Below, one piece after another: positions 9,166 through 57,390 of a DNA stretch of 64,000 bases (the first letter of the stretch is position 1; each line of letters begins with the position of its first letter). Below the pieces are notes generated by a model. The model had not been told where the DNA came from. It made no database searches and worked only from the letters and a program-made list of their open reading frames with translations. The stretch lies in the NCBI GenBank assembly GCA_035264195.1, contig DATFQQ010000217.1, positions 2,028 to 66,027 on the forward strand, given 5' to 3'. The position numbers and the translations under genes are program-made. This DNA is from Candidatus Sulfotelmatobacter sp. GTDB lineage: Bacteria > Acidobacteriota > Terriglobia > Terriglobales > Acidobacteriaceae.

Positions 9166-11031
9166 TTACGACTTTAGCAACAAGTAGGTGCTGTAGTTCT
9201 CCTTATCGATGTTCATGAACGGCCGCATGGTTACACCGCTGCCATCCGCGGCATTGGCCAGCCAATCACCTTTCGCGTTGTTGGCTGGCCTTGCCTGTAA
9301 CAGGGCGTTTCGCTCGACGGTTGGTTGCGAATCGGCGACGGCAAACAAGACAACTGGACCATTCAATAAGGCGACGAGATTCGGGTGGTTGGCGTCGACA
9401 GTCTCAAGACGTAGAGGCATTGGCAGCTCCAGTTCGATCCGATCGCCGTCGCTCCATGTGCGCTTGATCGCCGCGAACGTTCCTGGTTGCACCGACTCGG
9501 AAGCACGTTTGCCGTTGACCGACAGCACTGCGTCGGCAGTCCATCCGGGAATGCGGACATGAATCGTGAAGTCAGACGGTTTCGTCGCTGACACTTGCAT
9601 CTTGACCGTGTTCGCAAGCGGATAATTTGTCTCTTGCGTCAAGCCATAGTGGCCGCCTCCGTCCGTCCACTGGACTTTGGAGGGCGTGAACAGGTTCACG
9701 CACACTCCGTCCGCCGAGCGGAGATAAGTGCTGATGTGGTAGTCGGCCGCCAACTGGGGGAATGTTCCTGAACAGCACGGCCATTTTTGTCCGTACCAGA
9801 CCTTTTTTCCGGTGTTGGCATAGTCGGAATAGTAGAACGAGGTGCCATCGGCTTGAATCGGCCAAGCTCCCAAAATTGTGTTGTAGAGGATGCGCTCCAT
9901 GCTGTCGCCGTATTTCGAATCCTTCGTGACGCGCAACAGATAGCGTGTGATCTTGAAGTGGCCGTAAGCGCCACACGGAGTTTCGAAGCTGGCGTGGGAG
10001 TCAGTCAGGCTGTTTCCGAGTTGTCCGGTTCCGGGCTCGCCGAAGCTCTCGTTGGGACCCCATCCGCCGGTCGCGAAGCTCTGCGTTGTTTGCAGCATTT
10101 CGAAGCCATTCTTGGCTGCGCGCAGGTGCTTCTCGCTTCCCAGAGTAATGTATGCCTGCATGGCGGAGCTGAAAGCATTCACATGGCTATAAGCGTGCTC
10201 GAAGGGCAACACGTTGTTGCCCTGAGACAGCGGGTTGAAGTAGGTATCGTCTTCCAGATATTTCTTGGCCATCTCACGATAAAACACGTTGCCAGTGCGT
10301 TGATACGCGAGGAAGAGATTCTCGGGTAGTGTGTAGGTCTCATCCCACGTGTACGCAGTGTCTTTGTGCGGACGGGATCTCTGCTCCTGGCGCGAGAGAG
10401 CTTTTTCGGGCAGATACGGGATGATTGCGTGCGTGAGTTTGTCGTGAATCTGCATCGCCAATGGATCGCGCGCATATTCGTGGGCATCGATCAGGCCGCA
10501 GGATAGTTTGTCGTAGGTGTAGGCGGGGAGCCGGTAGTCCACGAAGAACTTGGCTTTCGGGTCGAGGGTCTCGCCATAGCCTTTTACCAGGCGGTTGATC
10601 TTCGCGCGAGTCTCCTCAGAACCAGTGACGGCGTACGCTCGTGCCAGTCCGGATACGTATTGCCCGAAACTGTGGCCGGGAATGAAGCCGTGAAAATCGT
10701 TATGTTCAAGACTGAATCCGCCAATGTCGTACCAGCCGCCCATATCTGCGCCGGGCGCGGGCAGTCCAGCCATCTGGCGAAAGACTTTCAGCATGCTGTC
10801 ATCGTCCAGATGAAGGAAGCGAGCATGATTTTCTTCGAACTGGCGCTTCATCGGACCATCGAGCAACTGGACGTCGGAGTAGGGAAAGGTCGCCAACGCC
10901 GGGGTAATTACGACCGAGCCCTTAAGTTCCCGGGAAGAAGCCCAAGCGGGAAGGGAAGTGACAGCGTATGCCGAAGCGGTGATCGCCCCTGCGGACACAA
11001 GAAAACTACGACGCGTAACGGAAGAACTCAT
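9166..11031 (-). CDS. DUF1680/GH127-family glycoside hydrolase (putative beta-L-arabinofuranosidase-like), Tat-exported
   Basis: Twin-arginine signal MSSSVTRRSFLVSAG. GGAGG RBS. Family-typical E..C (FETPCGAY) and Cys-Cys (KWPCCSGTF) motifs. Collinear with the other two GH127-like ORFs. Confidence 0.8.
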   Translation of the reverse strand: MSSSVTRRSFLVSAGAITASAYAVTSLPAWASSRELKGSVVITPALATFPYSDVQLLDGPMKRQFEENHARFLHLDDDSMLKVFRQMAGLPAPGADMGGWYDIGGFSLEHNDFHGFIPGHSFGQYVSGLARAYAVTGSEETRAKINRLVKGYGETLDPKAKFFVDYRLPAYTYDKLSCGLIDAHEYARDPLAMQIHDKLTHAIIPYLPEKALSRQEQRSRPHKDTAYTWDETYTLPENLFLAYQRTGNVFYREMAKKYLEDDTYFNPLSQGNNVLPFEHAYSHVNAFSSAMQAYITLGSEKHLRAAKNGFEMLQTTQSFATGGWGPNESFGEPGTGQLGNSLTDSHASFETPCGAYGHFKITRYLLRVTKDSKYGDSMERILYNTILGAWPIQADGTSFYYSDYANTGKKVWYGQKWPCCSGTFPQLAADYHISTYLRSADGVCVNLFTPSKVQWTDGGGHYGLTQETNYPLANTVKMQVSATKPSDFTIHVRIPGWTADAVLSVNGKRASESVQPGTFAAIKRTWSDGDRIELELPMPLRLETVDANHPNLVALLNGPVVLFAVADSQPTVERNALLQARPANNAKGDWLANAADGSGVTMRPFMNIDKENYSTYLLLKS

Positions 11032-11048
11032 GCGAATCCTCCAGTTCT

Positions 11049-11062
11049 GGGAAACGTTTTCT
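11049..11062. promoter_or_regulatory. LacI-type operator GGGAAACGTTTTCT
   Basis: Centred on CG at 11055-11056. It lies 3 nt downstream of the minus-strand -10 element and 18 nt upstream of the GH127-like start codon. Confidence 0.6.
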
Positions 11063-12518: not shown

Positions 12519-14165
12519 ATGAATCAATTTTCCAGTACCAGGCGACATTTTCTAAAACAGTCTTTAATTGCCGGCATGGCATGTTCAGCAAACGCGCTGA
12601 TAAGCGGGCCTATGGCGTTCGCGAAGAGCGCTCTTGGGCAGGGTGCAGCTTCGGCAAAGTCTGCGCAGATTTATGTCGACACGCGACGAACGATTTCTCC
12701 AATCGACAAGAATCTTTTCGGATCTTTCCTGGAGCACCTTGGCCGAGCCATCTACGGTGGAATCTACGATCCCGGCTCGAAGCTGGCAGACTCGAATGGC
12801 TTTCGCAAGGATGTGTTCAGCGAAATCCGGCAATTAGGCGTTCCGATCATTCGCTATCCAGGTGGGAACTTTGTCTCTGGCTACAACTGGCTTGACGGCG
12901 TTGGACCGGCGCAGAGTCGTCCGCGAGTGCTGGATAAAGCATGGAATACCATCGAATCCAACCAGTTCGGAACAAATGAATTCCTCGCGTGGTGCAAAGC
13001 TGCCGCTACGAAGCCGTTGATGGGACTGAATCTGGGAACGGGAACTCCCGAGGAAGCCGCCGCTCTGGTGGAGTACTGCAATGTAGATAAAGGAACCCGC
13101 TGGAGTGATCTACGCAGGCAGCACGGCGTAGCCGAACCGTGGAAGGTCCAACACTGGTGTCTGGGAAATGAAATGGACGGTCCCTGGCAGATTGGCCACA
13201 TGACTGCCACGGAGTATGGCATGAAGGCGCAGGATGCAGCGCGTCAGATGCGGAACGTCGATCCAGACCTCAAGTTGATTGCTTGTGGATCCAGCGGTCC
13301 TCTCATGCCCACTTACCTCGAGTGGGATCGGGAAGTGCTCGAGCAGTGCTACGACTATGTCGATGGCCTGTCACTGCACCGCTATTTCGGAAACTGGGAG
13401 CGAGATAGCGGAAATAAGACGGAGAACTATCTGGCCTTGAATTTGAGCATGGAACGTCAGATTGCAGAGACGCTTGCTGTGTGCGATCTGGTTCGCGGTC
13501 ATAAACGATCTCCGAAAAAACTCTGGCTGTCTTTCGATGAGTGGAACGTCTGGTATCGAACTACCGGGGGCGACGACGTTGATGGAAATCGGAAAGAAGC
13601 TCCGCACTTGCTGGAGGAGGTCTACAACCTGGAAGACGCGCTTCTGGTCGGAGGGCTGATTAATTCGCTGCTGCGAAACGCGGATCGAGTGAAACTGGCT
13701 TGCCTGGCGCAGTTGGTCAATGTGATTGCTCCGATCATGACCAATGCCGGCGGATTATTTCAGCAGACGATCTACTACCCATACAGCTGGGGAATTCAAT
13801 ACGCTCGAGGTGCTGTTCTGGATGTCTTAGTCGAATCGTCCACGTACGAGGTTGAGGGGCTCGATCAAGTCGGATACATCGATGTCGCCGGATCGCTGAA
13901 TCGCGATGACGGAAAATTGTCTCTGTTCATTCTGAATCGTGATTTGTCGAAGTCGCACGACGTCGAGATTGTCTGGGAGGACGCTGCGCCCGGACGAGTC
14001 ATTGCTGGATCGTTGTTAACCGGGAATGACCTGAAAGCGTCGAACAGTTTTGGAGCGCCAAAGAAGGTTGCACCGCAGAGCTTCACTGTTCCCGCGGCAA
14101 CCGGTGGACGAACAAAGTTCGAAGTTCCAGCGCGGTCATACACAGTGGTTCAGTGGTCCCTATAA
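12519..14165 (+). CDS. GH51 alpha-L-arabinofuranosidase, Tat-exported
   Basis: Twin-arginine signal STRRHFLKQSL. GH51 hallmarks are present: YPGGNFVSGYNW, the acid/base region WCLGNEMDGPWQ, and the nucleophile region WLSFDEWNVWY. Confidence 0.9.
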   Translation: MNQFSSTRRHFLKQSLIAGMACSANALISGPMAFAKSALGQGAASAKSAQIYVDTRRTISPIDKNLFGSFLEHLGRAIYGGIYDPGSKLADSNGFRKDVFSEIRQLGVPIIRYPGGNFVSGYNWLDGVGPAQSRPRVLDKAWNTIESNQFGTNEFLAWCKAAATKPLMGLNLGTGTPEEAAALVEYCNVDKGTRWSDLRRQHGVAEPWKVQHWCLGNEMDGPWQIGHMTATEYGMKAQDAARQMRNVDPDLKLIACGSSGPLMPTYLEWDREVLEQCYDYVDGLSLHRYFGNWERDSGNKTENYLALNLSMERQIAETLAVCDLVRGHKRSPKKLWLSFDEWNVWYRTTGGDDVDGNRKEAPHLLEEVYNLEDALLVGGLINSLLRNADRVKLACLAQLVNVIAPIMTNAGGLFQQTIYYPYSWGIQYARGAVLDVLVESSTYEVEGLDQVGYIDVAGSLNRDDGKLSLFILNRDLSKSHDVEIVWEDAAPGRVIAGSLLTGNDLKASNSFGAPKKVAPQSFTVPAATGGRTKFEVPARSYTVVQWSL

Positions 14166-14177: not shown

Positions 14178-16244
14178 ATGGCTGATAAAAGGCAAGTCTC
14201 CCGAAGGCAGTTCGTAACATCTGCGGCATCAGTGGCCGCTGCGGCTTCTATACCACTTCGCGCCCTGGGGCGAATTCCGGCGTCGGGAACGCCTGTTCAA
14301 AGCAACGCAAAGTTGACCGACTCACCAGGATGGAAGGATCAGGGCGTCGAGAATCTCGCAAAGTCTCCCCATGCCAAGCTGAGGGATATTCCTGTCCGAG
14401 CCGTAACGATCAACGGTGGATTCTGGGGCCCGCGTCGCGAGATCAACGTAACGAAGAGTATTCCAACGATGCACGACCTGCTGGAAGCCAATGGGCGCAT
14501 GGATAATTTCCGCCGCGTGGTGGGAAAGAGTCAGGCTGCGCAGAAGGGTCCCGTGTTCTCGGATTCTGACGTTTATAAATGGACTGAAGCGGTAGGGTTC
14601 GTGCTGCAGTCAGGCGATCGTCCGGAACTCCGCGCCACCACAGAGAAAATGATCGATGAGGTGGTCGCCGTTCAGGAACCGAGTGGATATCTGAATACCT
14701 ATTATCAGGACGACCGCAAATCACTGCGGATGCTCACTCAGACTCAGACCACCGGGCATGAACTTTACAACATCGGGCATATGCTTCAGGGCGCGATCGC
14801 TTACTATCGCGCTACTGGAGATCGGAAGCTACTCGATGCGGGTATTCGTTTCGTCGACGATTTCTTAATGCCGAATTATGGACCGGCTCCTAAGAAGCCA
14901 ATCGTTTCCGGCCACCCGGAAATCGAAATGGGTCTGATCGAGCTTTATCGGATCACCGGTGACAAACGCCAACTTGATCTTGCTGGGTACATTCTGGGGG
15001 GAGACTCTCGCCTCGATTTGCCGGAGCGGCGGACGATCTACATGTTCAGCGGAACGCCATTTACTGAGCGGACGAAAATGCAAGGCCATGCGGTGCGGGC
15101 GATGTATGCGTGCTGCGGCGCGACCGATTACTACATGGAGACCGGTGACCCGAAGTACTGGCAGACGCTAAATACTCTCTGGAATGACATGACCAGTACG
15201 AAGATGTACATCACCGGCGGAGTCGGTTCGCGGTCTGATGGAGAAGCATTTGGGGACGCGTACGAGTTACCGAACTTCCGTGCCTACGGCGAAAGCTGTG
15301 CTGCCATCGGCAACATGATGTGGAATTGGCGCATGCTGGCGGTTACGGGCGATGCGAAGTTTACGGATGTGATTGAGCGCGCTCTCTACAACGGAATCAA
15401 TTCCGGCATGTCTCTGGACGGCACTCTGTATTGTTATCGAAATCCCTTAGCGTTTGATCCGTCGACAGGCGACAAGATACGTAATCCCTGGTACGACGTG
15501 ACTTGCTGCCCACCGAATCTGGAGCGCACGTTCGGATCGCTTCCTGGTTATTTCTACTCCACGAGTGCCGACGGAATTTATGTGCACCTCTACGACGACT
15601 CCGAGCTTAACTGGCACCTTGAGAATGGAGTGGGGCTCAAAGTGACGCAGAAGACGAACTATCCGTGGGATGGCGCGGTGGACATTGCGGTTGAGCCTGC
15701 GTCATCTTCCGAGTTCACTTTTTATGTGCGGATTCCATCCTGGACTGATCGTGCGCAAGTTTCTGTTAACGGAAAGGAAGTCAGCGGTGCGACTCCAGGA
15801 CAGTATCTGCCGATCAAACGCATATGGTCGGCGGGGGATGTTGTTCAGCTCAAGCTGAATGTAGTGCCGCAGGTTGTGGAAGCGAACCCGCGCGTGGCCG
15901 ATGACACTGGCCGAGTTGCGGTCCAGAGGGGGCCACTCATCTATTGCCTGGAGGAAATCGATCAGCCAAGCGGTATTCCTCTCAGCGAAGTGGCAGTGAA
16001 TCCGGGCCGCCAACCGGCAGAACAATTTCAACCTGAGTTGAGAAAGGACCTACTCGGGGGGATGATTGTGCTGCATCACGACGGCGCAGTCTACGAGCGT
16101 GGTTCGGCGGAGAAACTGCTGTACTCGCAGTACAGAAAGGAATCCGACACGCGCAAGGTTCCGCTCACGTTCATTCCGTATTACGCGTGGGCCAACAGGC
16201 AGGCGACTTTTATGCAGGTCTGGAATTTGTTATTGCAGACCTAG
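14178..16244 (+). CDS. GH127 beta-L-arabinofuranosidase (HypBA1-like), Tat-exported
   Basis: Signal QVSRRQFVTSAAS. Canonical GH127 motifs are present: YGESCAAIGN (Glu-x-Cys) and DVTCCPPNLERT (Cys-Cys at 15504-15509). It starts 12 nt after the GH51 stop. Confidence 0.9.
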   Translation: MADKRQVSRRQFVTSAASVAAAASIPLRALGRIPASGTPVQSNAKLTDSPGWKDQGVENLAKSPHAKLRDIPVRAVTINGGFWGPRREINVTKSIPTMHDLLEANGRMDNFRRVVGKSQAAQKGPVFSDSDVYKWTEAVGFVLQSGDRPELRATTEKMIDEVVAVQEPSGYLNTYYQDDRKSLRMLTQTQTTGHELYNIGHMLQGAIAYYRATGDRKLLDAGIRFVDDFLMPNYGPAPKKPIVSGHPEIEMGLIELYRITGDKRQLDLAGYILGGDSRLDLPERRTIYMFSGTPFTERTKMQGHAVRAMYACCGATDYYMETGDPKYWQTLNTLWNDMTSTKMYITGGVGSRSDGEAFGDAYELPNFRAYGESCAAIGNMMWNWRMLAVTGDAKFTDVIERALYNGINSGMSLDGTLYCYRNPLAFDPSTGDKIRNPWYDVTCCPPNLERTFGSLPGYFYSTSADGIYVHLYDDSELNWHLENGVGLKVTQKTNYPWDGAVDIAVEPASSSEFTFYVRIPSWTDRAQVSVNGKEVSGATPGQYLPIKRIWSAGDVVQLKLNVVPQVVEANPRVADDTGRVAVQRGPLIYCLEEIDQPSGIPLSEVAVNPGRQPAEQFQPELRKDLLGGMIVLHHDGAVYERGSAEKLLYSQYRKESDTRKVPLTFIPYYAWANRQATFMQVWNLLLQT

Positions 16245-35568: not shown

Positions 35569-35571
35569 CTG

Positions 35572-47771: not shown

Positions 47772-48500
47772 TTATGATTTGGAACGTCGACCCGCGTTTT
47801 CCGGCTCGATCTGAGATTCCTTGCGCTTTTGTTCGAGCACTTCCTTGAGAGAGTCGCCCGCGTGCAGGATGTGGACGCGCAGAAGTTCGCAGGCCGCGGT
47901 AACGTCGCGCTGACGACAAAATTCAAGGATCTGGTGATGCTCTTCATTCGCGCGCTGCACACCATGGGTCAAGTACAACTGCAGCCGCGTATAGCGTTCG
48001 CCGCTGTTGTTGACGTTGCGGATGATGGCCATGAAGCGGGGTTGATTGGCTCGAGAATAAAGAATGGAATGAAATTGCCAGTTCAGGCGTCCCCAGGCTG
48101 AAAGATGTTCAGGCCGGCGGAGTTCGCTGACGTACTTTCGTAGCACTGCATCCGCTTCAGAGAAGTCCTCTTCAGTCAGATGAGGTATCGACAACTTCAG
48201 GACTTCTGGCTCGAGCAGGGCACGGATTGAGAACAGTTCTCCGATATCACTCGGCGATAGTGCCGGAACGATCGCACCACGGTTGGGAACGATGGCAATG
48301 AGACCTTCAGCGTCGAGCTGGCGAAGCGCCTCACGGACCGGGATGCGGCTCACCTGATATTGGGTAGCAATCGCGTCCTGGCGGAGTTGAGCTCCTTCGG
48401 GGATTTCGCCCCGGATGATTTGCTCCCGCAGCTTGTCGGCTACCGCAGAGGGCAGCGACTGGCGAGGAATGCCGGAGTAGGATTGGTTCTCGAGGTCCAT
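47772..48500 (-). CDS. GntR-family transcriptional regulator (FadR/FCD subfamily)
   Basis: Winged HTH LREQIIRGEIPEGAQLRQDAIATQYQVSRIPVREALRQLDAEGLI, followed by a helical FCD-like C-terminal domain. Confidence 0.9.
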   Translation of the reverse strand: MDLENQSYSGIPRQSLPSAVADKLREQIIRGEIPEGAQLRQDAIATQYQVSRIPVREALRQLDAEGLIAIVPNRGAIVPALSPSDIGELFSIRALLEPEVLKLSIPHLTEEDFSEADAVLRKYVSELRRPEHLSAWGRLNWQFHSILYSRANQPRFMAIIRNVNNSGERYTRLQLYLTHGVQRANEEHHQILEFCRQRDVTAACELLRVHILHAGDSLKEVLEQKRKESQIEPENAGRRSKS

Positions 48501-48658
48501 TCGGCGATCTGGCTACGACTCCGAATTGCGCGAATCGAGTATATCGCAGGTTGTATCCAGGAAGATGTTTTGGGGGTATCGGAACGCTTAACAAATGTCC
48601 TTTTTTCATGCGCTTGGAAACCATTTCCGGCGCGGCATAACGGGGATGGGAGAAAGGT

Positions 48659-48691
48659 TTGACGATTGCATATTGTATCCATAATATGGAT
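48659..48691 (+). promoter_or_regulatory. promoter TTGACG-N17-TAATAT overlapped by 15-bp palindrome ATCCATA-A-TATGGAT (candidate GntR operator)
   Basis: TTGACG at 48659-48664 and TAATAT at 48682-48687. The perfect 7-1-7 inverted repeat at 48677-48691 overlaps the -10 element. TTGTATCCA occurs twice, at 48551-48559 and 48673-48681. Confidence 0.55.
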
Positions 48692-48734: not shown

Positions 48735-49688
48735 ATGATACGCAACGAGTGGCAAAGAGTTAAGGTGATCGACTCCCATACCGGAGGGGAGCCGACCCGT
48801 CTCGTGATCAGCGGTGGTCCTGACCTGGGTAACGGTGATTTGGCAACGAGGTTAGAGCGCTTTCGCCGGGACTACGATACCTTCAGGTCCGCTGTGGTCA
48901 ACGAGCCCAGAGGATCCGATGTGGTGGTCGGCGGACTGCTGTGCAAACCCTTAGATCCGGAATGCGCCTCTGGCGTCATCTTCTTTAATAATGTCGGCTA
49001 CCTCGGGATGTGTGGCCACGGAACTATCGGGCTGGTCGCAACGCTCTGCCATATGAACAGGATTGCTCCAGGCAAACATAAGATCGAGACACCAGTCGGT
49101 GTCGTATCGGCGGTGCTACACGAGAGCGGTGACGTGACAGTAAATAATGTCGCCAGCTACCGCAGCGCGGAGAACGTGAAAGTAACGGTTCCGAATTATG
49201 GGGATGTCTATGGTGACGTCGCTTGGGGTGGAAACTGGTTTTTTCTGGTGCGCCATCATGAGAGGGAACTTAGCCTCAAGAACGTCGATGAACTAACGGC
49301 TTTCACCTGGGCCATTCGCGTGGCGTTACGAGAAAACCGGATTACTGGTGACCACGGGAAAGAAATCGACCATGTGGAGTTATTCGCCGCATCCCAAAAA
49401 ACAGGGGTCGACAGCAAGAATTTCGTACTTTGTCCTGGCAAGGCTTATGACCGCTCTCCTTGCGGAACTGGCACCAGCGCAAAGTTGGCTTGCCTCTATG
49501 CAGACGGGAAAATCAAAGAAGGACAGACTTGGCGGCAAGAGAGCATTGTTGGCAGCGTTTTTGAAGGAAGCATAAGGGTGGAAGGCGGCAAGGTATATCC
49601 GAGCATCAAGGGCTCTGCTTTCGTGAATGCGGAAGCAGATCTGTTGCTGAACCCGAAAGATCCGCTCTGCATGGGCATTCGCGTCTGA
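48735..49688 (+). CDS. 4-hydroxyproline 2-epimerase (proline racemase family)
   Basis: VIDSHTGGEPTRLV. Both catalytic Cys motifs are present (GYLGMCGHGTIG and DRSPCGTGTSA), which indicates an epimerase/racemase rather than a dehydratase member of the family. Confidence 0.85.
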   Translation: MIRNEWQRVKVIDSHTGGEPTRLVISGGPDLGNGDLATRLERFRRDYDTFRSAVVNEPRGSDVVVGGLLCKPLDPECASGVIFFNNVGYLGMCGHGTIGLVATLCHMNRIAPGKHKIETPVGVVSAVLHESGDVTVNNVASYRSAENVKVTVPNYGDVYGDVAWGGNWFFLVRHHERELSLKNVDELTAFTWAIRVALRENRITGDHGKEIDHVELFAASQKTGVDSKNFVLCPGKAYDRSPCGTGTSAKLACLYADGKIKEGQTWRQESIVGSVFEGSIRVEGGKVYPSIKGSAFVNAEADLLLNPKDPLCMGIRV

Positions 49689-49695
49689 CTTGGAT

Positions 49696-50826
49696 ATGAG
49701 CAAACCTGCATACGACATCGTGATCGTGGGCGCTGGAATAGTCGGTGCGGCGTGCGCCGACGCTTTCACCGAGCGCGGTCTGAGAGTTGTCGTTGTCGAT
49801 CGTGATGTTGTTGGCAGCGGAGCAACGGCCGCCGGTATGGGCCACATTGTCGTCATGGACGACTCCGATGCTCAGTTTGCTTTGACGAATTACTCGCAGC
49901 GATTGTGGCAGCAACTGAAACCGGAACTTCCAAACAACGTCGAGTACGAGCAACCCGGAACGATTTGGGTGGCTGCCGATGACGAAGAGATGGCCGAGGT
50001 CTTTCGCAAGCGCGACTACTACCAAAAACGTGGAGTTGCGGTTGACGTTTTAGATCATCAGCAGCTCCAAGAAGTCGAGCCGAACCTGCGGGAGGGACTC
50101 GCGGGAGGATTGCTGGTTACTAGCGATGGCGTTCTATACCCACCGTGTGCCGCACGATTTCTCATGACACGCGCACAACAACGCGGAGCCAAGCTCAGGC
50201 TGGGCGCTTCCGTAACTCAGATTGCGGAGCAAAAAGTCCGGCTTAGCGACCATCAGGAAATCTCAGCTGGAATTATTGTGAATGCTGCTGGCGCGAGCGC
50301 TGCCGACCTTACGCCGGCCATCGCCATCAAGAAGCGCAAGGGTCATCTCGTGATTACCGACCGCTATCCTGGTTTTCTGCGTCATCAACTCGTCGAGCTT
50401 GGATATCTGAAGAGTGCGCACTCGGTGTCGAGCGATTCAGTAGCATTCAACGTGCAGCCTCGCAGTACCGGCCAAATCTTGATTGGGTCGTCACGGCAAT
50501 ATGGGGCCGAGCACAAGGAAGTAGACCATTCGATGCTGGCAAAGATGATCCGTCGAGCTGAAGAGTACATGCCCGCGCTCGGGATGATGTCAGCGGTGCG
50601 CGTGTGGACCGGTTTTCGCGCAGCCACACCTGACAAGTTGCCGCTTGTCGGTCCCTGTCCGGGATATCGATCTTTGTGGCTGGCAACGGGGCATGAAGGC
50701 TTGGGAATTACGACTTCGCTCGGAACCGCACGACTCCTGGTAGATCAGGTGACCGGGTCCAAAACGGAGATTGCAGCCGAACCATATTTGCCGTCGCGTG
50801 CTGTCACTGAATATGCACATGCCTAA
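49696..50826 (+). CDS. FAD-dependent oxidoreductase, D-hydroxyproline dehydrogenase beta-subunit-like
   Basis: ATG at 49696. Dinucleotide-binding start YDIVIVGAGIVGAACA. DAO-family length. Confidence 0.8.
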   Translation: MSKPAYDIVIVGAGIVGAACADAFTERGLRVVVVDRDVVGSGATAAGMGHIVVMDDSDAQFALTNYSQRLWQQLKPELPNNVEYEQPGTIWVAADDEEMAEVFRKRDYYQKRGVAVDVLDHQQLQEVEPNLREGLAGGLLVTSDGVLYPPCAARFLMTRAQQRGAKLRLGASVTQIAEQKVRLSDHQEISAGIIVNAAGASAADLTPAIAIKKRKGHLVITDRYPGFLRHQLVELGYLKSAHSVSSDSVAFNVQPRSTGQILIGSSRQYGAEHKEVDHSMLAKMIRRAEEYMPALGMMSAVRVWTGFRAATPDKLPLVGPCPGYRSLWLATGHEGLGITTSLGTARLLVDQVTGSKTEIAAEPYLPSRAVTEYAHA

Positions 50827-51064
50827 TGAGTTCACAGTCACGGTAAATGGAACACCCGTTTCGGTGTCGCAAGGTGCAACGGTTGCCGTTGCCCTCATGA
50901 TGGCAGGACGGCCATGCAGGAAGTCGACGACGGGAGAGCCGCGTGGACCGTTATGTGGTATGGGGATCTGCTTCGAATGCCGCGCGGTCGTCAATGGCAT
51001 TCCACATTCTCGCAGCTGTCAACTGTTATGCGAACCCGGCATGGAAGTAAGAACGGATGAATAG
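50819..51064 (+). CDS. small (2Fe-2S)-binding subunit, D-hydroxyproline dehydrogenase gamma-like
   Basis: ORF 50771..51064. The ATG at 50819 (or 50813) overlaps the upstream stop. Cys cluster CRKS...CGMGICFECR, typical of HcnA/opine-oxidase-type small subunits. Confidence 0.7.
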   Translation: MPNEFTVTVNGTPVSVSQGATVAVALMMAGRPCRKSTTGEPRGPLCGMGICFECRAVVNGIPHSRSCQLLCEPGMEVRTDE

Positions 51065-52364
51065 TTACTCTCAGCAACGGTTCGATGTCCTCATCGTCGG
51101 TGGAGGTCCCGCTGGCATGGCGGCAGCCGTATCCGCAGCTAAGAGCGGCGTGCGGGTCGGTATCGTCGACGAGAACCCGAGTCTAGGAGGTCAAATCTGG
51201 CGTGGCGAGACGTCAAGCGGTTCGCACTCCGTGGAAGCCTCCAGTTGGCTGAATCAAGTAAAGACTTCTAGCGTGACACACCTCCAGGGAAAAAGAGTCT
51301 TCCATCAACCCGAACCCGGGGTTCTTTTGGCAGAAGGCCTTGACGATGTGGCTGAACTGAGCTACCGCACGCTAGTGTTGGCGACCGGCGCTCGAGAAAG
51401 GTTCCTGCCTTTTCCGGGCTGGACGCTGCCGAACGTAACTGGCGCCGGTGGGTTGCAAGCGCTCGTGAAGTCGGGTCTGCCAATTAAGGGCAAACGCGTC
51501 GTTGTAGCCGGGACCGGTCCGCTCCTGCTTGCTGTTGCCGCCTATCTTCGCAAGCATGGCGCAGAGATCCCAATGATTTGCGAACAAGCATCATGGAGCA
51601 GGCTGGCGAAATTCGGCCTAACCCTTTTGAGTCAGCCCGGCAAGGTCGCCCAAAGTCTGCACCTGAAGAAAGACATTGCCGGCATTTCGTTCGTTGCGAA
51701 TAGTTGGCCGCTTGCGGCTCACGGAAAAAATGCACTGGAAGCCGTGACGATCTCGCGTAGTGGCAAGTCTGAGGTTGTTAAGTGCGACTATCTCGCCTGC
51801 GGATTCCATCTGGTGCCCAATGTCGAACTGCCTGTTTTGATGGGATGTCAAACTCGCTGTGGCTATGTGCAGGTCAACGACCTTCAGCAAACCACAGTCA
51901 AAGATATCTTCTGTGCTGGTGAGCCGACTGGCGTTGGCGGAGTAGAGATAGCCCTCATGGAAGGGCAGATCGCCGGGCTAGCCGCTACGGGGCAGGTGTG
52001 CGAAGCGAAGACTCTCTTTCGTAAACGGGATAAGCTTCGCCGCTTTGCGCACGCATTGGACGAATCATTTTGCCTGCGTTCCGAACTTAGAAGTCTGCCC
52101 GCGTCCGACACTCTCGTGTGCCGATGTGAAGACGTTCCATACTCTCACCTGCGCGAGCACACCTGCTGGCGTTCCGCCAAACTGCACACGCGGTGCGGAA
52201 TGGGACCTTGTCAGGGAAGAATTTGTGGACCCGCCACGCAGTTCCTTTTCAAGTGGAATCCGGATTCGGTTCGGCCCCCGGTATTTCCAGCACGTGTTGA
52301 AAATCTGGCAGTCACCCCAGCATCCCAGCAGTCGATCCCAGCGGTTACAGGAGGGCTTCAATGA
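51057..52364 (+). CDS. FAD/NAD(P)-binding oxidoreductase, D-hydroxyproline dehydrogenase alpha-subunit-like
   Basis: FDVLIVGGGPAGMAAA plus a second dinucleotide fold RVVVAGTGPLLLAVAA. C-terminal Cys-rich tail CRCEDV...CGMGPCQGRIC. The start overlaps the upstream stop. Confidence 0.8.
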   Translation: MNSYSQQRFDVLIVGGGPAGMAAAVSAAKSGVRVGIVDENPSLGGQIWRGETSSGSHSVEASSWLNQVKTSSVTHLQGKRVFHQPEPGVLLAEGLDDVAELSYRTLVLATGARERFLPFPGWTLPNVTGAGGLQALVKSGLPIKGKRVVVAGTGPLLLAVAAYLRKHGAEIPMICEQASWSRLAKFGLTLLSQPGKVAQSLHLKKDIAGISFVANSWPLAAHGKNALEAVTISRSGKSEVVKCDYLACGFHLVPNVELPVLMGCQTRCGYVQVNDLQQTTVKDIFCAGEPTGVGGVEIALMEGQIAGLAATGQVCEAKTLFRKRDKLRRFAHALDESFCLRSELRSLPASDTLVCRCEDVPYSHLREHTCWRSAKLHTRCGMGPCQGRICGPATQFLFKWNPDSVRPPVFPARVENLAVTPASQQSIPAVTGGLQ

Positions 52365-53284
52365 ACTGGAAAGGCGTTACGCCGGCAATTACCACCCCTT
52401 TCAACGGGAATCTTACCGTCGATCACGGATTCCTGGCAGAACACTGCCGCTGGCTGCTGGATAACGGATGCGCCGGTGTAGTCGCGTTGGGGTCGCTCGG
52501 TGAGGGCGCAACTCTTACGTTCGACGAGAAAACAGAAATTCTTCGCACGCTCGGGAAGGCCACTCATGGAAAAGGTACTCTTGTGGCTTCGATTTCCTCG
52601 TTGACTACTTCAGAGTCTGTGGAACTTGCGAAAGCCGCGACCGATCTGGGATGTTCGGGGCTCATGGTTTTGCCGCCGTATGTCTACCTCGGAGATTGGC
52701 GTGAAATGAAAGCCCATGTCGCTGCGGTATTTCGCGCGACACCGCTTTCCTGCATGCTGTACAACAACCCGGTGGCGTACGGAACCGATTTCGTGCCTGA
52801 GCAGATTCAGGAACTGGCCTTGGAATTCGAAAACTTCAAAGCTGTGAAAGAATCCAGTACGGATGCGCGTCGTGTCTCAGCAATCCGTGCCCTCGTTGAC
52901 CAGCGACTTGAAATCTCCGTTGGAGTGGACGACGCCGTTCTCGAGGCAATCGGGGTCGGAGCGACCGGATGGGTTGCCGGCCTGGCAAATGCTCTCCCGC
53001 GCGAATCTGTAGATCTGTTCAACTACGGAATTCAAGGGGAAAGCGCCAGGGCATTTGAGTTATACCGCTGGTTCCTACCATTGCTCAGAATGGATACCGT
53101 CCCAAAATTTGTTCAACTGATCAAGCTGGTACAAGCCGAAGTTGGGATGGGAAATACTCGTGTCAGGCCTCCGCGGCTTGAGATTGTGGGAGCCGAACTC
53201 GATCAGACCAATGCAATCATCCGCGACGCATTGCGAACTCGCCCAGAGTTGGTGAGTTCGTATGCAGTTCCAGTCAGGAAGTGA
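52361..53284 (+). CDS. dihydrodipicolinate-synthase-family lyase, likely delta1-pyrroline-4-hydroxy-2-carboxylate deaminase
   Basis: DHDPS/NAL-family N-terminus GVTPAITTPF and the FKAVKESS Schiff-base Lys region. ATGA overlap with the upstream gene. The specific function is inferred from operon context. Confidence 0.75.
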   Translation: MNWKGVTPAITTPFNGNLTVDHGFLAEHCRWLLDNGCAGVVALGSLGEGATLTFDEKTEILRTLGKATHGKGTLVASISSLTTSESVELAKAATDLGCSGLMVLPPYVYLGDWREMKAHVAAVFRATPLSCMLYNNPVAYGTDFVPEQIQELALEFENFKAVKESSTDARRVSAIRALVDQRLEISVGVDDAVLEAIGVGATGWVAGLANALPRESVDLFNYGIQGESARAFELYRWFLPLLRMDTVPKFVQLIKLVQAEVGMGNTRVRPPRLEIVGAELDQTNAIIRDALRTRPELVSSYAVPVRK

Positions 53285-53288
53285 ACTT

Positions 53289-54881
53289 ATGTTAAGTGTA
53301 ATGGAAAAACTTTCGGGGCACTCGCTCATCGGTTTCCAAGAGGGCAGGGGGACCGGTGTTCCTCTGTACGCGCGAGATCCCACGACCGGTCAGCAGTTGC
53401 AGCCAGGTTTCATTCCCGCGACTGCGGAGGAAGTCGATCGCGCGGTCCAACTCGCGGCAGATGCTTTCAAAATCTACAGTCGGACATCCGGACGTGAACG
53501 CGGTGCATTCCTGCGGAAAATCGCGGCGAGCATCGAAGCCATTGCCGCTGACATTATAGAAAGGGCCGCTCAGGAGACCGCGCTTCCAGTCGCTCGTCTG
53601 CAAGGCGAGACCGCCCGTACCTGTAATCAACTTCGATTGTTCGCTCAGGTTGCGGAAGAGGGATCGTGGGTCAACGCTCGAATCGATCATGCCGAGCCTG
53701 ACCGCAAGCCAGCGCCGAAACCAGATATTCGCTCGCTGATGCGGCCGCTCGGTCCGGTGGTCGTGTTTGGCGCAAGCAATTTCCCACTCGCCTTTTCGGT
53801 CGCCGGTGGAGATACCGCATCGGCGTTGGCCGGTGGAAACACCGTGATCGTCAAGGCGCACGCGGCTCACCCAGGCACCGGTGAATTGGTGGGTCGTGCC
53901 TTGCAAGAGAGTGCTCGTGAATGTGGCATGCCAGAAGGGGTCTTCTCACTGCTGTTCGGGCACGGCTCAGAGATTGGAACGGCGCTCATGAAGCACCCAC
54001 TGGTGCGCGCCGGTGGCTTCACAGGCTCTCGCACGGCGGGCCGAATCCTGATGGACATCGCTGCCTCTCGCCCGGAGCCGATGCCTTTCTATGCAGAGAT
54101 GAGCAGCACGAATCCGGTCTTCATTCTGCCGGGAGCCTTGCGCGAGCGTGGCGCGAGTATTGCGTCCGGGCTGCACACGTCGTTCACCCTGGGGGCTGGA
54201 CAATTCTGCACCAAGCCCGGGATGGTTTTTCTTGAGAAGAGTCCAGAGGCCGACCGATTTGCCCGCAAGCTAAGCGAATTGGTCACAGGATCGTCAGGCT
54301 TCCACCTTCTCACCGAAGCGATCCACTCGTCATATGGCTCCTCGATCGCCAAGCGGAAAGCCGATCCCATTGTAACCACGCTGGTGGAAAGACAAGGTCC
54401 TGAGGCGAAAGGTTTCTGCGCCGATCCCATGGTGTTCGAGACCGATGCCGATTCATTTCTTGGCTCCGAACTGGACGCCGAGATCTTCGGCCCAACCACG
54501 CTGTTGGTGCGCCATTCGAGCCGCGAGCAGATTATTAAGATCGCAAATTCTCTTGAAGGCCATCTGACTGCAACAATTCATGGGACGGAGCAAGACCTTC
54601 GCGACTTTTCCGATCTCGTTGCCATTCTCGAAACGAAGGTGGGACGGTTGATCTTCAACGGTTTCCCCACAGGAGTCGAAGTCACACACGCCATGGTCCA
54701 CGGCGGTCCGTATCCTTCGACATCCGATGGGCGCTCAACTTCAGTCGGAACTCAGGCGATCTTTCGCTTCGCACGGTTAGTCTGCTACCAGGGATTTCCC
54801 GACGCCGCTCTGCCTGATGAACTGAAAGAGGCCAACCCATTGGGGATCTGGCGAATGGTCGACGGAAATTTCCGCAACTAG
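53289..54881 (+). CDS. aldehyde dehydrogenase, alpha-ketoglutarate-semialdehyde dehydrogenase-like
   Basis: ORF 53262..54881, trimmed to the ATG at 53289. ALDH motifs are present: FYAEMSSTNPVF and the catalytic Cys in GAGQFCTKPG. Confidence 0.85.
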   Translation: MLSVMEKLSGHSLIGFQEGRGTGVPLYARDPTTGQQLQPGFIPATAEEVDRAVQLAADAFKIYSRTSGRERGAFLRKIAASIEAIAADIIERAAQETALPVARLQGETARTCNQLRLFAQVAEEGSWVNARIDHAEPDRKPAPKPDIRSLMRPLGPVVVFGASNFPLAFSVAGGDTASALAGGNTVIVKAHAAHPGTGELVGRALQESARECGMPEGVFSLLFGHGSEIGTALMKHPLVRAGGFTGSRTAGRILMDIAASRPEPMPFYAEMSSTNPVFILPGALRERGASIASGLHTSFTLGAGQFCTKPGMVFLEKSPEADRFARKLSELVTGSSGFHLLTEAIHSSYGSSIAKRKADPIVTTLVERQGPEAKGFCADPMVFETDADSFLGSELDAEIFGPTTLLVRHSSREQIIKIANSLEGHLTATIHGTEQDLRDFSDLVAILETKVGRLIFNGFPTGVEVTHAMVHGGPYPSTSDGRSTSVGTQAIFRFARLVCYQGFPDAALPDELKEANPLGIWRMVDGNFRN

Positions 54882-54893: not shown

Positions 54894-54915
54894 AGCCCGG
54901 CTGAAGAGCCGGGCT
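54894..54915 (+). terminator. terminator-like hairpin AGCCCGGCT-GAAG-AGCCGGGCT
   Basis: A perfect 9-bp stem starting 13 nt after the ALDH stop. The downstream T-tract is weak (GTTCA). Confidence 0.45.
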
Positions 54916-54939: not shown

Positions 54940-54951
54940 AAGGTGTCATAA

Positions 54952-57390
54952 ATGCCAAATGTCACTCCGCGATACCCTCATGCACGTCTTCTAAGAAGAG
55001 TTCTTCTGGTGGGCTCATTGATCTGCGCCCCGCTGCCAGTGTCGTCCGTGGCGCAGAACCAGAGTTTCGCCGCGGAGCAAGGCAATAAGACGATCAAATT
55101 GCATCCGCTCCCGCTGAACCATCTCAGGCTCACGGGGGGACCGCTCAAAGCCGCTCAAGACGCCGACGCGAAATACTTGCTCGAACTTCAGCCAGATCGC
55201 ATGCTTGCTTTTCTTCGCCAACGCGCCGGGCTGAAAGCCAAGGCGGAAGGCTATGGCGGCTGGGATGGTCCAGGGCGCAATCTCACAGGACACATTGCAG
55301 GCCACTACCTCTCCGCAGTTAGCCTGATGTGGGCTGCGACTGGAGACGCTCGCTTCAAAGAGCGCTCCGACTACATCGTCGAACAGTTGAAAGAGATTCA
55401 GGATGCTCAAGGCGATGGCTATATCGGCGCTTTGGAAGACAACCAGGGTGTTGACGGTAAACAGCGCTTCGTTGACTTAAGCAATGGCGTCATCAAATCC
55501 GGGGGGTTCGATCTGAACGGCCTCTGGTCTCCTTGGTATGTCGAGCATAAACTTTTTGCTGGCCTGAGGGACGCCTATCGATACACAGGCAATCAAACTG
55601 CGTTGCAGGTGGAAATCAAGTTTGCAGGGTGGGTTGAGAAAATTCTGTCTCGACTAAGCGACGATCAATTGCAACGCATGTTGGGCACCGAATTCGGAGG
55701 AATGAACGAAGTCCTTGCCGAACTGTACGCCGATACCGGTGACGAGCGGTGGCTAATTCTCACTGACAAATTCCATCAGAAGGCAATTCTCGATCCTCTC
55801 TCGCAAGATCACGACGTAATAGCGCACACGCATGGCAACACCCAAATCCCCAAGGTGTATGGGGCGCTCATGCGCTACGTCTATACGGGCAATCAGGCTG
55901 ATGAAGAAACAGCCAAGTTTTTCTGGAATCAAGTCGTCGATCACTACAGCTTCGCCACGGGAGGCGACGGCAAGAACGAATACTTTGGCGCTCCCGACAA
56001 GCTGAACGATATGGTCGACGGCCGCACGGCTGAGACGTGCAATGTGTACAACATGCTGAAGATGACGCGCACGCTCTTCTCCGTCGAGCCCGATATTCGC
56101 TATGCCGATTTCCATGAGCGCGCATTGTTTAACCACATTCTTTCTTCGCAGGATCCACGCGATGGAACTGTCACCTACATGCTTCCCGTTGGCCGCGGAG
56201 TTCAACACGAATATCAACGCATGTTCGAGGACTTTACCTGCTGCGTCGGTTCCAGCATGGAAAGCCACGCGCTGCACGGTGCCGGAATCTATTACTACAA
56301 GAACTCCGAGGAGTTCTGGATTAGCCTCTACGCACCTTCCACCGCTCGCTGGGACTCGGCTGGCGTTGAACTGGAGACGGCGACCGACTTTCCGATCGGC
56401 TCATCTGCTTCGGTGAAAATCCAAACTAAAATTCCAAAGACATTCACGCTCGCTCTGCGGCGGCCGTATTGGGCCGGCGACGGGTTCAGCGTGAAAGTAA
56501 ACGGCCGTCCGTTGAAGGATCTCCCTGCTGCGGATTCGTACGTCAAGATCAACCGCGTCTGGAAGCAAGGTGATAAGGTGGATCTCGTTCTCCCGAAAGT
56601 CCTACATGAAGACCCATTGCCAGACAATCCCAGCCGAATGGCGTTAATGTGGGGACCACTCGTTCTGGCTGGCGATCTTGGACCGGACATTCCCCAGCGC
56701 GAAGGCGACGAAGAAACTCCGAAGGGACCAACCGCGCCTCCACTCGTCGCTGATAAACCACTCGAGCAGTGGCTCAAGCCAGAGTCCGAGAAGCCAGGCT
56801 GGTTCAAGACGGCCGGAGTTGGACTAACCAATGACATCGAATTCGCTCCTCTTTACGAACTGCCACGCCGGAGATATGCAGTCTACTGGGATGTATTTAC
56901 TCCCGAAGAATGGAGCAAGCGATCAGCCGAGTACAAGGCTGAGCAGGAAAAGCAGCAGAAACTCCAGGCTGCGACGATCGCTTTTGCCCAGCCCGGCGAA
57001 ATGCAATCAGAGCGCGACTTCAACGAACAAGGAGAAGAGTCTAAGCCACTGGTCTGGAGAGGACATCATGGCCGCGGCGGAAAAGGTTGGTTCTCGTTCG
57101 ATCTGCCGGTAGACAACGCGCACCCGGTTGCGCTCTGGGTGACCTACGGCGGCGAGTCGTGGCGAAAGAGCAGTTTCGACATCTTTGTCGACGGCCAAAA
57201 AATCGCTGATCGTGACGAGCCTACACGCAGCCCTGATCAGGAATTGCAGTTAACTGATGTCCGCTACGCGATTCCGCCCGAGTTGCTCACCGGTAAGAAC
57301 AAGATAACCGTACGATTCGCGGCGACGAATGGAAATGATATCCGCGGAGTATTTGGACTGCGCACCATACGCGCCGACGAGGCACGCTGA
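54952..57390 (+). CDS. DUF1680/GH127-family glycoside hydrolase with extra C-terminal domain, secreted
   Basis: Sec-type signal LLRRVLLVGSLICAPLPVSSVAQ. Family motifs AETCNVYNM (Glu-x-Cys) and FTCCVGSSMESH (Cys-Cys). About 150 to 200 aa longer than the other two paralogs at the C-terminus. Confidence 0.8.
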   Translation: MPNVTPRYPHARLLRRVLLVGSLICAPLPVSSVAQNQSFAAEQGNKTIKLHPLPLNHLRLTGGPLKAAQDADAKYLLELQPDRMLAFLRQRAGLKAKAEGYGGWDGPGRNLTGHIAGHYLSAVSLMWAATGDARFKERSDYIVEQLKEIQDAQGDGYIGALEDNQGVDGKQRFVDLSNGVIKSGGFDLNGLWSPWYVEHKLFAGLRDAYRYTGNQTALQVEIKFAGWVEKILSRLSDDQLQRMLGTEFGGMNEVLAELYADTGDERWLILTDKFHQKAILDPLSQDHDVIAHTHGNTQIPKVYGALMRYVYTGNQADEETAKFFWNQVVDHYSFATGGDGKNEYFGAPDKLNDMVDGRTAETCNVYNMLKMTRTLFSVEPDIRYADFHERALFNHILSSQDPRDGTVTYMLPVGRGVQHEYQRMFEDFTCCVGSSMESHALHGAGIYYYKNSEEFWISLYAPSTARWDSAGVELETATDFPIGSSASVKIQTKIPKTFTLALRRPYWAGDGFSVKVNGRPLKDLPAADSYVKINRVWKQGDKVDLVLPKVLHEDPLPDNPSRMALMWGPLVLAGDLGPDIPQREGDEETPKGPTAPPLVADKPLEQWLKPESEKPGWFKTAGVGLTNDIEFAPLYELPRRRYAVYWDVFTPEEWSKRSAEYKAEQEKQQKLQAATIAFAQPGEMQSERDFNEQGEESKPLVWRGHHGRGGKGWFSFDLPVDNAHPVALWVTYGGESWRKSSFDIFVDGQKIADRDEPTRSPDQELQLTDVRYAIPPELLTGKNKITVRFAATNGNDIRGVFGLRTIRADEAR

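Follow-up and report, generated by a model that had tools for sequence, protein, structure and literature searches.

A candidate acidobacterial locus for the use of hydroxyproline-O-arabinosylated glycopeptides

We read, with slightly better than even confidence, a stretch of the Candidatus Sulfotelmatobacter sp. genome (Acidobacteriota, Terriglobia) as a lineage-conserved locus for using the hydroxyproline (Hyp)-O-arabinosylated glycopeptides of hydroxyproline-rich glycoproteins (HRGPs). The window, as we call the whole stretch analysed, comprises 64,000 nucleotides of contig DATFQQ010000217.1 (assembly GCA_035264195.1, positions 2,028 to 66,027) and holds, within about 48 kb, three genes of the DUF1680 superfamily, glycoside hydrolases (GHs) of families 51 and 27, an S9B serine peptidase and an operon for Hyp catabolism. 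Comparison with relatives gives good support to the prediction that the removal of beta-arabinofuranosides and the catabolism of Hyp are functionally coupled, and among candidate substrates a Hyp-O-arabinosylated glycopeptide fits best.

HRGPs contain nitrogen and make up a considerable share of the cell walls of plants, mosses and green algae, and their mineralisation by soil bacteria is poorly known. The characterised systems of Bifidobacterium and Xanthomonas deal with the sugar part only, and soil-preferring Acidobacteriota were found enriched in Hyp degradation in a 2025 survey (PMC11778308). The locus would allow the complete turnover of HRGPs to be modelled genetically in the abundant Acidobacteria of peat and forest soils, would give two large uncharacterised families (DUF5695 and that of a 783-aa protein, UNK783) a functional context and would hint at where enzymes cutting Hyp-O-glycosidic bonds may be sought. 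An initial annotation, which had proposed a dedicated HRGP utilisation system here, was unaware of any such single locus having been described in this lineage, and our literature search likewise yielded no description of a locus joining glycosidases, peptidases and Hyp catabolism.

Gene content of the locus

Pfam and NCBIfam profiles were scanned over 38 open reading frames (ORFs) of the window (Table 1), which is gene-dense, with 53-57 % G+C and no compositional break. Every ORF listed in the initial annotation was found in place and belongs, at family level, where it had been put. Three genes had been assigned to GH127/DUF1680, and all three match PF07944 (149, 324 and 375 bits), but only one of them is a true GH127. 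This one has the PF07944 catalytic, middle and C-terminal domains and scores 417 bits to 6ex6, 411 to 4qjy and 312 to HypBA1 (3wkw), against 70 to the GH146 structure 5opj; the residues of its zinc-binding and catalytic Glu-x-Cys...Cys-Cys motif are E372, C374, C443 and C444. Aceric acid hydrolases also fall within GH127, and the NCBIfam AcerHdlse model scores 506 bits here, below its cut-off of 950.

The gene that follows the Hyp operon belongs to GH146. Residues 53-785 align with 28-782 of BT0349 (5opj, 435 bits), and since only 38 bits are reached to HypBA1 the enzyme is not a HypBA1-type GH127. It carries DUF6805 at residues 670-805, and its zinc Cys3-Glu site (E361, C363, C430 and C431, in ETCN and FTCC motifs) aligns to that of BT0349; the site in Bll3HypBA1 is E723, C725, C804 and C805 (PMC10850190). 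The GH146 enzymes XeHypBA1 and Bll4HypBA1 hydrolyse arabinofuranose (Araf)-beta1-Hyp, freeing Araf from the peptide (PMC10850190), and it is genomic context only that points to membership of the window's enzyme in this subgroup. BT0349-type enzymes are limited to small substrates by a jelly-roll lid (PMC10850190), which would fit a role on Ara-Hyp or short glycopeptides. An exact-sequence look-up of the protein returned no record. The third PF07944 gene is a divergent member, about equidistant from both families (108 bits to 4qjy, 94 bits to 5opj), with the C domain absent and the motif spaced differently (E350-x-x-C353, C419-C420).

Upstream of the GH146 gene runs the operon that had been described as leading from trans-4-hydroxy-L-proline to 2-oxoglutarate. 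The epimerase, DAO, DHDPS and aldehyde dehydrogenase (ALDH) families are indeed found together in operon order, with an additional 2Fe-2S ORF that the initial annotation had not listed. Neighbouring genes overlap by 1-37 bp or lie 1 nt apart, and the order recurs in dozens of loci of Acidobacteriota, Planctomycetota, Verrucomicrobiota and Burkholderiales. The epimerase matches PA1268 of Pseudomonas aeruginosa (2azp) with 416 bits and its NCBIfam model with 435 bits (cut-off 442), the dehydratase model giving 181 bits. It retains the catalytic Cys93 and Cys243; a Cys/Cys pair marks Hyp epimerases and a Cys/Thr pair 3-Hyp dehydratases (PMC4113996). The DAO gene holds the same operon position in more than 50 loci (single loci of the scans are cited below as L001 and so on), the orthologue of the small Cys-rich ORF bears PF13510 (Fer2_4) in L081 and L083, and together with the Pyr_redox_2 flavoprotein the two look like a three-subunit D-Hyp dehydrogenase. 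The DHDPS family is the known one for the deamination of delta1-pyrroline-4-hydroxy-2-carboxylate (Pyr4H2C; PMC4113996), and the DHDPS-family enzyme is assigned as Pyr4H2C deaminase by context, that is, by family and conserved operon position. On the same grounds the ALDH is assigned as alpha-ketoglutarate semialdehyde (KGSA) dehydrogenase; its best NCBIfam match is the KGSA dehydrogenase GucD, at 130 bits far under the cut-off of 770.

Among close relatives in L001-L080 the three-gene dehydrogenase set alternates with a single DAO gene (L006, L008, L015, L017, L053, L077). Some GH146-linked loci have no dehydrogenase or even no epimerase (L091, L093, L106, L121). The GC-rich hairpin ahead of the GH146 gene was considered as a terminator after the ALDH gene and rejected, its T-run sitting on the wrong strand.

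The control region of the operon has two exact TTGTATCCA boxes, at 48551 and 48673, a -35/-10-like site at 48659-48687 and a 7-1-7 palindrome at 48677-48691. Conservation in relatives covers the core TTGACGATTGCATATTGTATCCATAA and does not extend to the right half of the palindrome. A search for the palindrome ATCCATANTATGGAT gave 3 matches where 1.0 was expected, the sole exact site being the Hyp promoter, and TTGTATCCA gave 12 matches against 8.9 expected. The divergently transcribed regulator is of the GntR/FCD family; HypR of Sinorhizobium is also a GntR-family protein.

For the remaining sugar-related genes the families first proposed were borne out. The GH51 alpha-L-arabinofuranosidase passes the NCBIfam ArfA cut-off (652 bits, cut-off 625) and the ribulokinase its own (550 bits, cut-off 428). 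The GH27 protein has a Melibiase_2 domain, retains the catalytic Asp motifs KYD and TED and is most likely, on sequence similarity, an alpha-galactosidase: its top structures are plant alpha-galactosidases (6f4c, 345 bits; 1uas, 324 bits), and the beta-L-arabinopyranosidase 3a21 follows at 268 bits. Judged by eye and not by a predictor, the N-termini of all glycosidases, the S9B peptidase, UNK783 and the DUF5695 protein resemble Sec or Tat signals, and such N-termini are absent from the Hyp enzymes and AraB.

The peptidase had been called DPP-IV-type, which stands for the fold (DPPIV_N, 200 bits; Peptidase_S9, 136 bits) and for the catalytic triad, whose motifs GTSAGG (615-620), DDNVH (690-694) and FHGES (721-725) line up with the human ones, but not for the double-Glu motif: in S9B and its 78 % orthologue, GWDYATP and a 13-residue insert replace the DWVYEEE of human DPP4. 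Its best structures are Porphyromonas 2d5l (217 bits), which we take to be a prolyl tripeptidyl peptidase, and Bacteroides BtDPP4 (210 bits). A second S9B paralogue, seen in relatives only (L081, L001), reads DWVYEEEF and is a canonical DPP-IV. DPP-IV-type enzymes are not known to cleave with Pro or Hyp at P1', so Ser-Hyp4 runs would resist them. The double-Glu motif anchors the substrate N-terminus and is essential for dipeptidyl activity (PMC5807507); the window's S9B is predicted to be exopeptidase-like with a non-canonical N-terminus-binding site. Upstream of it, as in L081, L083, L093 and L121, lies the gene of a TonB-dependent-receptor-like outer-membrane protein (OMP). The OMP is flanked by TPR and FG-GAP/UnbV proteins, the window has no SusD-family match, and the arrangement is not that of a Bacteroidetes-type polysaccharide utilisation locus (PUL).

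UNK783 gave no Pfam, NCBIfam or PDB sequence match, and its family counts 1408 representatives at 50 % clustering. An AlphaFold (AF2) model from a 44-sequence alignment (mean predicted local distance difference test (pLDDT) 90, predicted template-modelling score (pTM) 0.91) shows an N-terminal beta-sandwich, an (alpha/alpha)6 barrel and a C-terminal beta-sandwich. Foldseek returned GH94 phosphorylases, GH78, GH116, an exo-beta-D-arabinanase, GH95, GH15 and GH127, a generic six-hairpin set at template-modelling (TM) scores of 0.25-0.47. With invariant D115, D445 and E640, the modelled protein is a candidate glycosidase of an undescribed family. The DUF5695 protein had no PDB match, and no functional literature on it was found, an unrelated fungal paper being the one match; its AF2 model is poor (pLDDT 51, the homologues retrieved all being at least 75 % identical), and its secondary structure runs from beta-rich through all-alpha to beta. 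Homology of UNK783 to GH121 (HypBA2) was rejected, there being no significant PDB sequence match and a generic (alpha/alpha)6 result from Foldseek only, as was kinship with DUF5695, of which profile-profile comparison shows none. A Pfam scan of 43 diverse UNK783 relatives gave nothing besides one unrelated DUF4360 match.

Table 1 Features of the window, numbered from its first nucleotide
Feature	Position	Strand	Basis or remark
Divergent DUF1680-superfamily protein, Tat-exported (predicted)	9166..11031	-	Similarity scores, motif
GH51 alpha-L-arabinofuranosidase, ArfA type, Tat-exported (predicted)	12519..14165	+	NCBIfam ArfA score
GH127 beta-L-arabinofuranosidase-family enzyme, Tat-exported (predicted)	14178..16244	+	Structure scores, motif residues
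TonB-dependent-receptor-like OMP (CarboxypepD_reg + OMP_b-brl_4)	37440..41528	+	Pfam
S9B (DPP-IV-fold) serine peptidase, exported (predicted)	41857..44166	+	DPPIV_N and Peptidase_S9 domains
UNK783, 783-aa Tat-exported protein (twin-arginine signal)	44207..46558	+	Between S9B and GH27
GH27, exported (predicted)	46602..47741	+	Melibiase_2 and Melibiase_C domains
GntR/FCD-family regulator, divergent from Hyp operon	47772..48500	-	Pfam
Hyp-operon control region	48551..48691	+	Two boxes, promoter-like site, palindrome
4-Hydroxyproline 2-epimerase	48735..49688	+	PA1268 similarity, Cys pair
D-Hyp dehydrogenase, putative DAO-family subunit	49690..50826	+	Pfam DAO, 229 bits
D-Hyp dehydrogenase, putative small 2Fe-2S subunit	50813..51064	+	83-codon Cys-rich ORF
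D-Hyp dehydrogenase, putative Pyr_redox_2 flavoprotein subunit	51057..52364	+	Pfam; operon position conserved
DHDPS-family enzyme	52361..53284	+	Pfam DHDPS, 168 bits; under all NCBIfam equivalog cut-offs
Aldehyde dehydrogenase (ALDH)	53262..54881	+	Pfam Aldedh
GC-rich 9-bp hairpin, in 70-nt gap ahead of GH146 gene	54894..54915	.	+ strand T-run absent
GH146, BT0349 type	54952..57390	+	5opj full-length match, Zn/catalytic motif
DUF5695 protein, 933 aa, exported (predicted)	22134..24935	-	Pfam, 1320 bits
Ribulokinase AraB (FGGY kinase)	19157..20746	-	NCBIfam ribulokinase score
LacI-family regulator of arabinose/GH sub-cluster	20973..22043	-	Pfam
GH39	16256-18142	-	Beside GH127 and GH51
GguC/AraD1 (FAH family), enolase-superfamily sugar-acid dehydratase, sugar-acid transporter of the major facilitator superfamily (MFS)	25831..29250	-	Pfam/NCBIfam
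UNK198, 198-aa ORF	57457-58053	-	Directly after GH146; no Pfam/NCBIfam match
Gfo/Idh/MocA dehydrogenase, nearest to pentose 1-dehydrogenase	58534..59658	-	NCBIfam

Linkage of the genes in relatives

The initial annotation had called for a synteny survey and had named the loss of co-localisation in relatives as grounds for refutation. No such loss is seen: in numerous genomes of Terriglobia and contigs from soil, and in several gene orders, the Hyp operon is linked to GH146, GH27, S9B peptidases, GH51-type arabinofuranosidases, DUF5695 and UNK783. Scanning genomes with the epimerase gave 80 loci, mostly from Terriglobia metagenome-assembled genomes, in which the window proteins were located by tblastn and unassigned ORFs were scanned with Pfam, supplemented by two annotated look-ups. 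The closest epimerase loci are from Candidatus Sulfotelmatobacter, at 79 % identity. The block of the nearest clade reads OMP, S9B, UNK783, GH27, (second GH51), GntR (-), canonical DPP-IV (-), APC-family permease (-), Hyp operon, the amino-acid permease lying between GntR and epimerase. It is kept in L001, L002, L005, L011, L081 and L083, the first three of which start partway into it, and of its genes the DPP-IV, the permease and the extra GH51 have been lost from the window. In more distant genomes the DPP-IV adjoins the Hyp operon and is followed by GntR, GH51 and AraB (73 % orthologue; L026), DPP-IV and GH146 share a neighbourhood (L049), GH146 overlaps the ALDH stop (L024, Pyrinomonadaceae) and UNK783 directly follows the epimerase (L060, Bryobacteraceae).

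A metagenome scan with GH146 gave another view of the same linkage, in 80 orthologue loci at 64-100 % identity. At 12 of the 19 GH146 loci flanked by 7 kb or more on each side, two or more Hyp-operon genes lie within 10 kb; by our estimate, a 6-kb operon would fall that close to a given gene of a genome of about 5 Mb in about 0.5 % of cases. Five or more gene orders carry the linkage, at 64-93 % identity and with inversions among them: GH146 downstream of the operon on the same strand; an inverted operon with GntR between it and GH146; GH146-GH51'-GntR-operon-GH27; operon-GntR-permease-GH51'(-)-GH146-DUF5695(-); and GH146, MFS and the enolase-superfamily gene (ENOL) in some, UNK783(-) and GntR(-). 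Such varied arrangements argue for selection beyond inherited synteny alone.

The most frequent GH146 neighbours among 54 loci are GntR (29), DUF5695 (24), GH51 (11) and UNK783 (10). L091 and L105 have, in order, GH146, an ASD1-type GH51, DUF5695, the orthologue of the window's GH51 (81-83 %) and AraB (86 %), with LacI (83 %) in L105; the annotation of the ASD1-type enzyme (850-890 aa) comes from L091 and L095, the corresponding position of L105 being unannotated. The two sub-clusters that stand 30 kb apart in the window thus form one compact locus in these relatives. In L124, L125 and L133, orthologues of the MFS and ENOL genes (68-82 %) separate GH146 from UNK783, and other genes beside GH146 encode a proline dehydrogenase (L124) and an M1 peptidase with an amidase (L154).

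Proposed route and its alternatives

From the genes present, their catalytic motifs and their conserved linkage we infer substrates and regulation as follows. Glycopeptide fragments would be taken across the outer membrane by the TonB-dependent-receptor-like protein. In the periplasm, one or more exported GH51 enzymes would cut alpha-Araf caps, GH127 and GH146 enzymes would cut beta-Araf, with GH146 taking the last Araf off Hyp, GH27 would cut alpha-Gal, and UNK783 and DUF5695 might act on further linkages. S9B would shorten the bared Pro/Hyp-rich peptide, to which relatives would bring a canonical DPP-IV and an amino-acid permease, and Hyp (or small peptides) and arabinose would be imported. 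In the cytoplasm, the epimerase, the three-subunit D-Hyp dehydrogenase, Pyr4H2C deaminase and KGSA dehydrogenase would convert Hyp to 2-oxoglutarate, and L-arabinose would pass to ribulokinase and possibly also into an oxidative route converging on the same KGSA dehydrogenase. The operon would be controlled by the divergent GntR regulator, and the GH146 gene is probably co-transcribed with it or reached by read-through.

GH51 and UNK783 may be functional analogues of GH121 and the GH43 enzyme HypAA, and a GH121 analogue among UNK783 and DUF5695 that releases arabino-oligosaccharides from Hyp is one possibility. A bolder version, which we regard as doubtful, makes UNK783 and DUF5695 the founders of new GH families for Hyp-linked glycans in the first described glycoprotein utilisation locus. 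If true, the locus would unite deglycosylation, exopeptidase trimming and catabolism of a modified amino acid, both halves of Ara-Hyp ending at KGSA and one shared dehydrogenase.

Several observations weigh against HRGP glycopeptides as the substrate. The claim of the initial annotation that the enzymes match every bond type was overstated: family scans of the window find no GH43 domain in any ORF of at least 150 aa, no beta-galactan enzymes, no prolidase, no Hyp or peptide transporter and no araA or araD, and no GH121 homologue was found, a GH121 structure being available (PMC7263609) and UNK783 and DUF5695, the two searched against the PDB of three ORFs with no characterised family (the third being UNK198), having no sequence match there. 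Without the double-Glu motif, S9B is not a canonical DPP-IV, and the nearest characterised homologue of the GH146 enzyme, BT0349, acts on arabinan oligosaccharides. About 20 kb of the 48-kb span (20.7-41.8 kb) holds genes with no clear HRGP link, and a hairpin stands between the ALDH and GH146 genes. The regulon search found no sites ahead of the peptidase/GH27 unit, GH146 or the arabinose cluster; as the Hyp promoter alone carries the operator-like motif, nothing points to a common regulon. Any of these glycosidase or peptidase families occur at only 10 of 47 well-flanked epimerase loci, the other 37 Hyp operons standing alone, which makes the coupling a lineage trait, and the loci counted are not phylogenetically independent. 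The interpretation given in the initial annotation is supported in part. Finally, L093 and L121 keep only DHDPS-ALDH-GH146, which would also fit a reading centred on arabinose.

On such a reading, which is compatible with HRGP use and which we think unlikely, oxidative L-arabinose and Hyp routes would be brought together by their shared KGSA endpoint, the ALDH and perhaps the DHDPS enzyme, with independent substrates: pectic arabinan or arabinoxylan for the one, free Hyp or peptides for the other. The DHDPS family also includes the L-2-keto-3-deoxyarabonate dehydratase of Azospirillum. The window has the enolase-superfamily dehydratase, GguC/AraD1 (which passes its NCBIfam cut-off), the sugar-acid MFS transporter and the Gfo/Idh/MocA protein (whose 225 bits against the Gfo6 model for D-xylose 1-dehydrogenase fall short of the cut-off of 350), which could form an oxidative pentose route also ending at KGSA; yet the matches place the enolase and FAH proteins by family and not by specificity, and the ribulokinase of the phosphorylative route is present as well. 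The position of MFS and ENOL between GH146 and UNK783 in L124, L125 and L133 favours this reading, as does the linkage itself, which is tightest for ALDH-GH146: DHDPS-ALDH-GH146 persists without epimerase or dehydrogenase in L093, L116 and L121, DHDPS-GH146 alone in L111, and the same DHDPS-ALDH/GH146 pattern in L114, where the sequence upstream is unannotated. What this reading leaves unexplained are S9B, the canonical DPP-IV, the amino-acid permease, the M1 peptidase, the proline dehydrogenase and GH27, which recur in the neighbourhoods.

Peptides or glycans other than those of extensin might be served instead. If the unit were S9B and the Hyp operon, scavenging Hyp peptides of collagen, gelatin or microbes, the glycosidases would come from unrelated plant-polysaccharide clusters, and the window is indeed dense in carbohydrate-active enzymes (CAZymes) with no evident HRGP link (GH31, GH38, GH39 and a BNR protein). 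The closest structures to S9B are from Porphyromonas, whose S9B-like enzymes are linked to the breakdown of collagen peptides, and the 37 solitary operons point the same way. We find this improbable, as the GH146-Hyp operon linkage outlasts many rearrangements, GH27, GH51 and UNK783 share the peptidase's apparent transcription unit in relatives, and UNK783 and GH146 abut or overlap operon genes in L060 and L024. Somewhat less improbable is the use of arabinogalactan-protein (AGP) side chains in place of extensin, namely beta1,3-Araf, alpha-Gal-(1,3)-Araf and alpha-Araf on X-Hyp repeats, dipeptide units that suit dipeptidyl peptidases, such as the canonical DPP-IV of relatives, better than contiguous Hyp runs. 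The GH146 enzyme Bll3HypBA1 is beta1,3-specific on AGP (PMC10850190) and a GH39 galactosyl-arabinofuranosidase is active on gum arabic (PMC8939339); in the window a GH39 gene stands beside GH127 and GH51, and GH27 adds a probable alpha-galactosidase. Against AGP, neither the window nor the conserved block has a beta-1,3- or beta-1,6-galactanase, beta-galactosidase or beta-glucuronidase family, and no GH39 gene was seen in the conserved neighbourhoods of relatives.

Neighbouring genes and known systems

A module of a TPR protein, an FG-GAP/ASPIC-UnbV protein, a TonB-receptor-like OMP (CarboxypepD_reg and OMP_b-brl_4) and a second TPR protein occurs twice, at 289-8991 and 31627-41528, and the second of them keeps synteny with the Hyp locus in L081, L083 and L158. 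The FG-GAP/UnbV and TPR proteins beside OMPs may be substitutes for SusD-like binding proteins. Downstream of GH146, 60079-63975 encodes a BNR/sialidase-like beta-propeller protein, a ROK kinase and a GH38 C-terminal fragment, also found in L086 and L087. The BNR protein has weak PDB similarity, to GH33 sialidases only; because its orthologues (56-70 %) are found again next to the Hyp operon in L005, L035, L049 and L072, it may belong to the system. At 24947-28018 on the minus strand, overlaps of 89-145 bp arise when the HIBADH-like, GguC/AraD1 and enolase genes are each read as their longest ORF; the true starts probably lie further downstream, since similarity to the families sets in at about residues 37 (GguC) and 55 (HIBADH-like). 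Rfam and tRNA scans of the window gave zero matches.

The GH146 protein is 100 % identical to those of two soil metagenome contigs, L084 and L088 (Ga0126380 and Ga0126381), and a JGI contig of 49,991 bp (P0001) encodes an identical UNK783; the window thus comes from, or is identical to, a population sampled there. UNK198 is 96-100 % conserved in L084 and L088 and 53 % in L087. L086 (91 %) is collinear with 44207-63975, minus matches to UNK198 and the Gfo/Idh/MocA gene. Just downstream of the Hyp operon, L011 (16135-18561, -) and L006 (14796-17192, -) encode 800-aa proteins that are 70 % identical to one another, have no Pfam match and are absent from the window; the L011 copy, the only one read, bears a HEMGH zinc-metallopeptidase-like motif.

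The pieces of the locus are already known, as the arabinoside clusters of Bifidobacterium and Xanthomonas (PMC7263609, PMC6085000), Hyp operons (PMC4113996) and TonB-linked CAZyme loci. The literature search came closest to a combined locus with a Latescibacteria study that inferred extensin use in silico from GH127 alone (PMC4454575) and with the remark on a Xanthomonas peptidase pseudogene described below (PMC6085000). The GH146 enzyme shares with BT0349 of Bacteroides thetaiotaomicron the domain order, jelly-roll lid included, and the zinc Cys3-Glu motif; BT0349, however, works on arabinan oligosaccharides as part of a pectin (rhamnogalacturonan I/arabinan) PUL that has SusC/SusD, whereas the window's gene comes after a Hyp operon and the window lacks a SusD-like gene. 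That operon has the same enzyme families and order as the Pseudomonas lhp and Sinorhizobium hyp operons (families per PMC4113996) and a GntR-type regulator. Those operons are described with transporters only; in the window as in its relatives the neighbours of the operon are exported glycosidases and S9B peptidases, and no amino-acid transporter is among the family matches of the window.

The hypBA cluster of Bifidobacterium longum comprises HypBA2 (GH121), HypAA (GH43), HypBA1 (GH127) and an ABC transporter, to which Bll4HypBA1 (GH146) is added. In common with it, the locus would remove alpha- and beta-L-arabinofuranose stepwise from Hyp-linked chains by way of cysteine-nucleophile GH127 and GH146 enzymes (PMC7263609, PMC10850190), a GH146 member freeing the last Araf from Hyp in B. 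longum (PMC10850190). Here, GH51 and two uncharacterised families stand in place of GH121 and GH43, the enzymes are predicted to be periplasmic behind a TonB-type OMP, unlike the cell-surface and intracellular enzymes of the Gram-positive B. longum, and peptidases and Hyp catabolism are joined to them, unlike in the cluster as described in the cited papers. The XeHypBA1/BA2/AA cluster belongs to the Gram-negative Xanthomonas euvesicatoria, whose XeHypBA1 is a GH146 enzyme acting on Araf-beta-Hyp (PMC6085000). An adjacent prolyl-oligopeptidase pseudogene was remarked on there as a possible HRGP peptidase and Hyp catabolic genes were not reported (PMC6085000), whereas the acidobacterial locus has an intact peptidase gene and, as its core neighbour, the Hyp operon.

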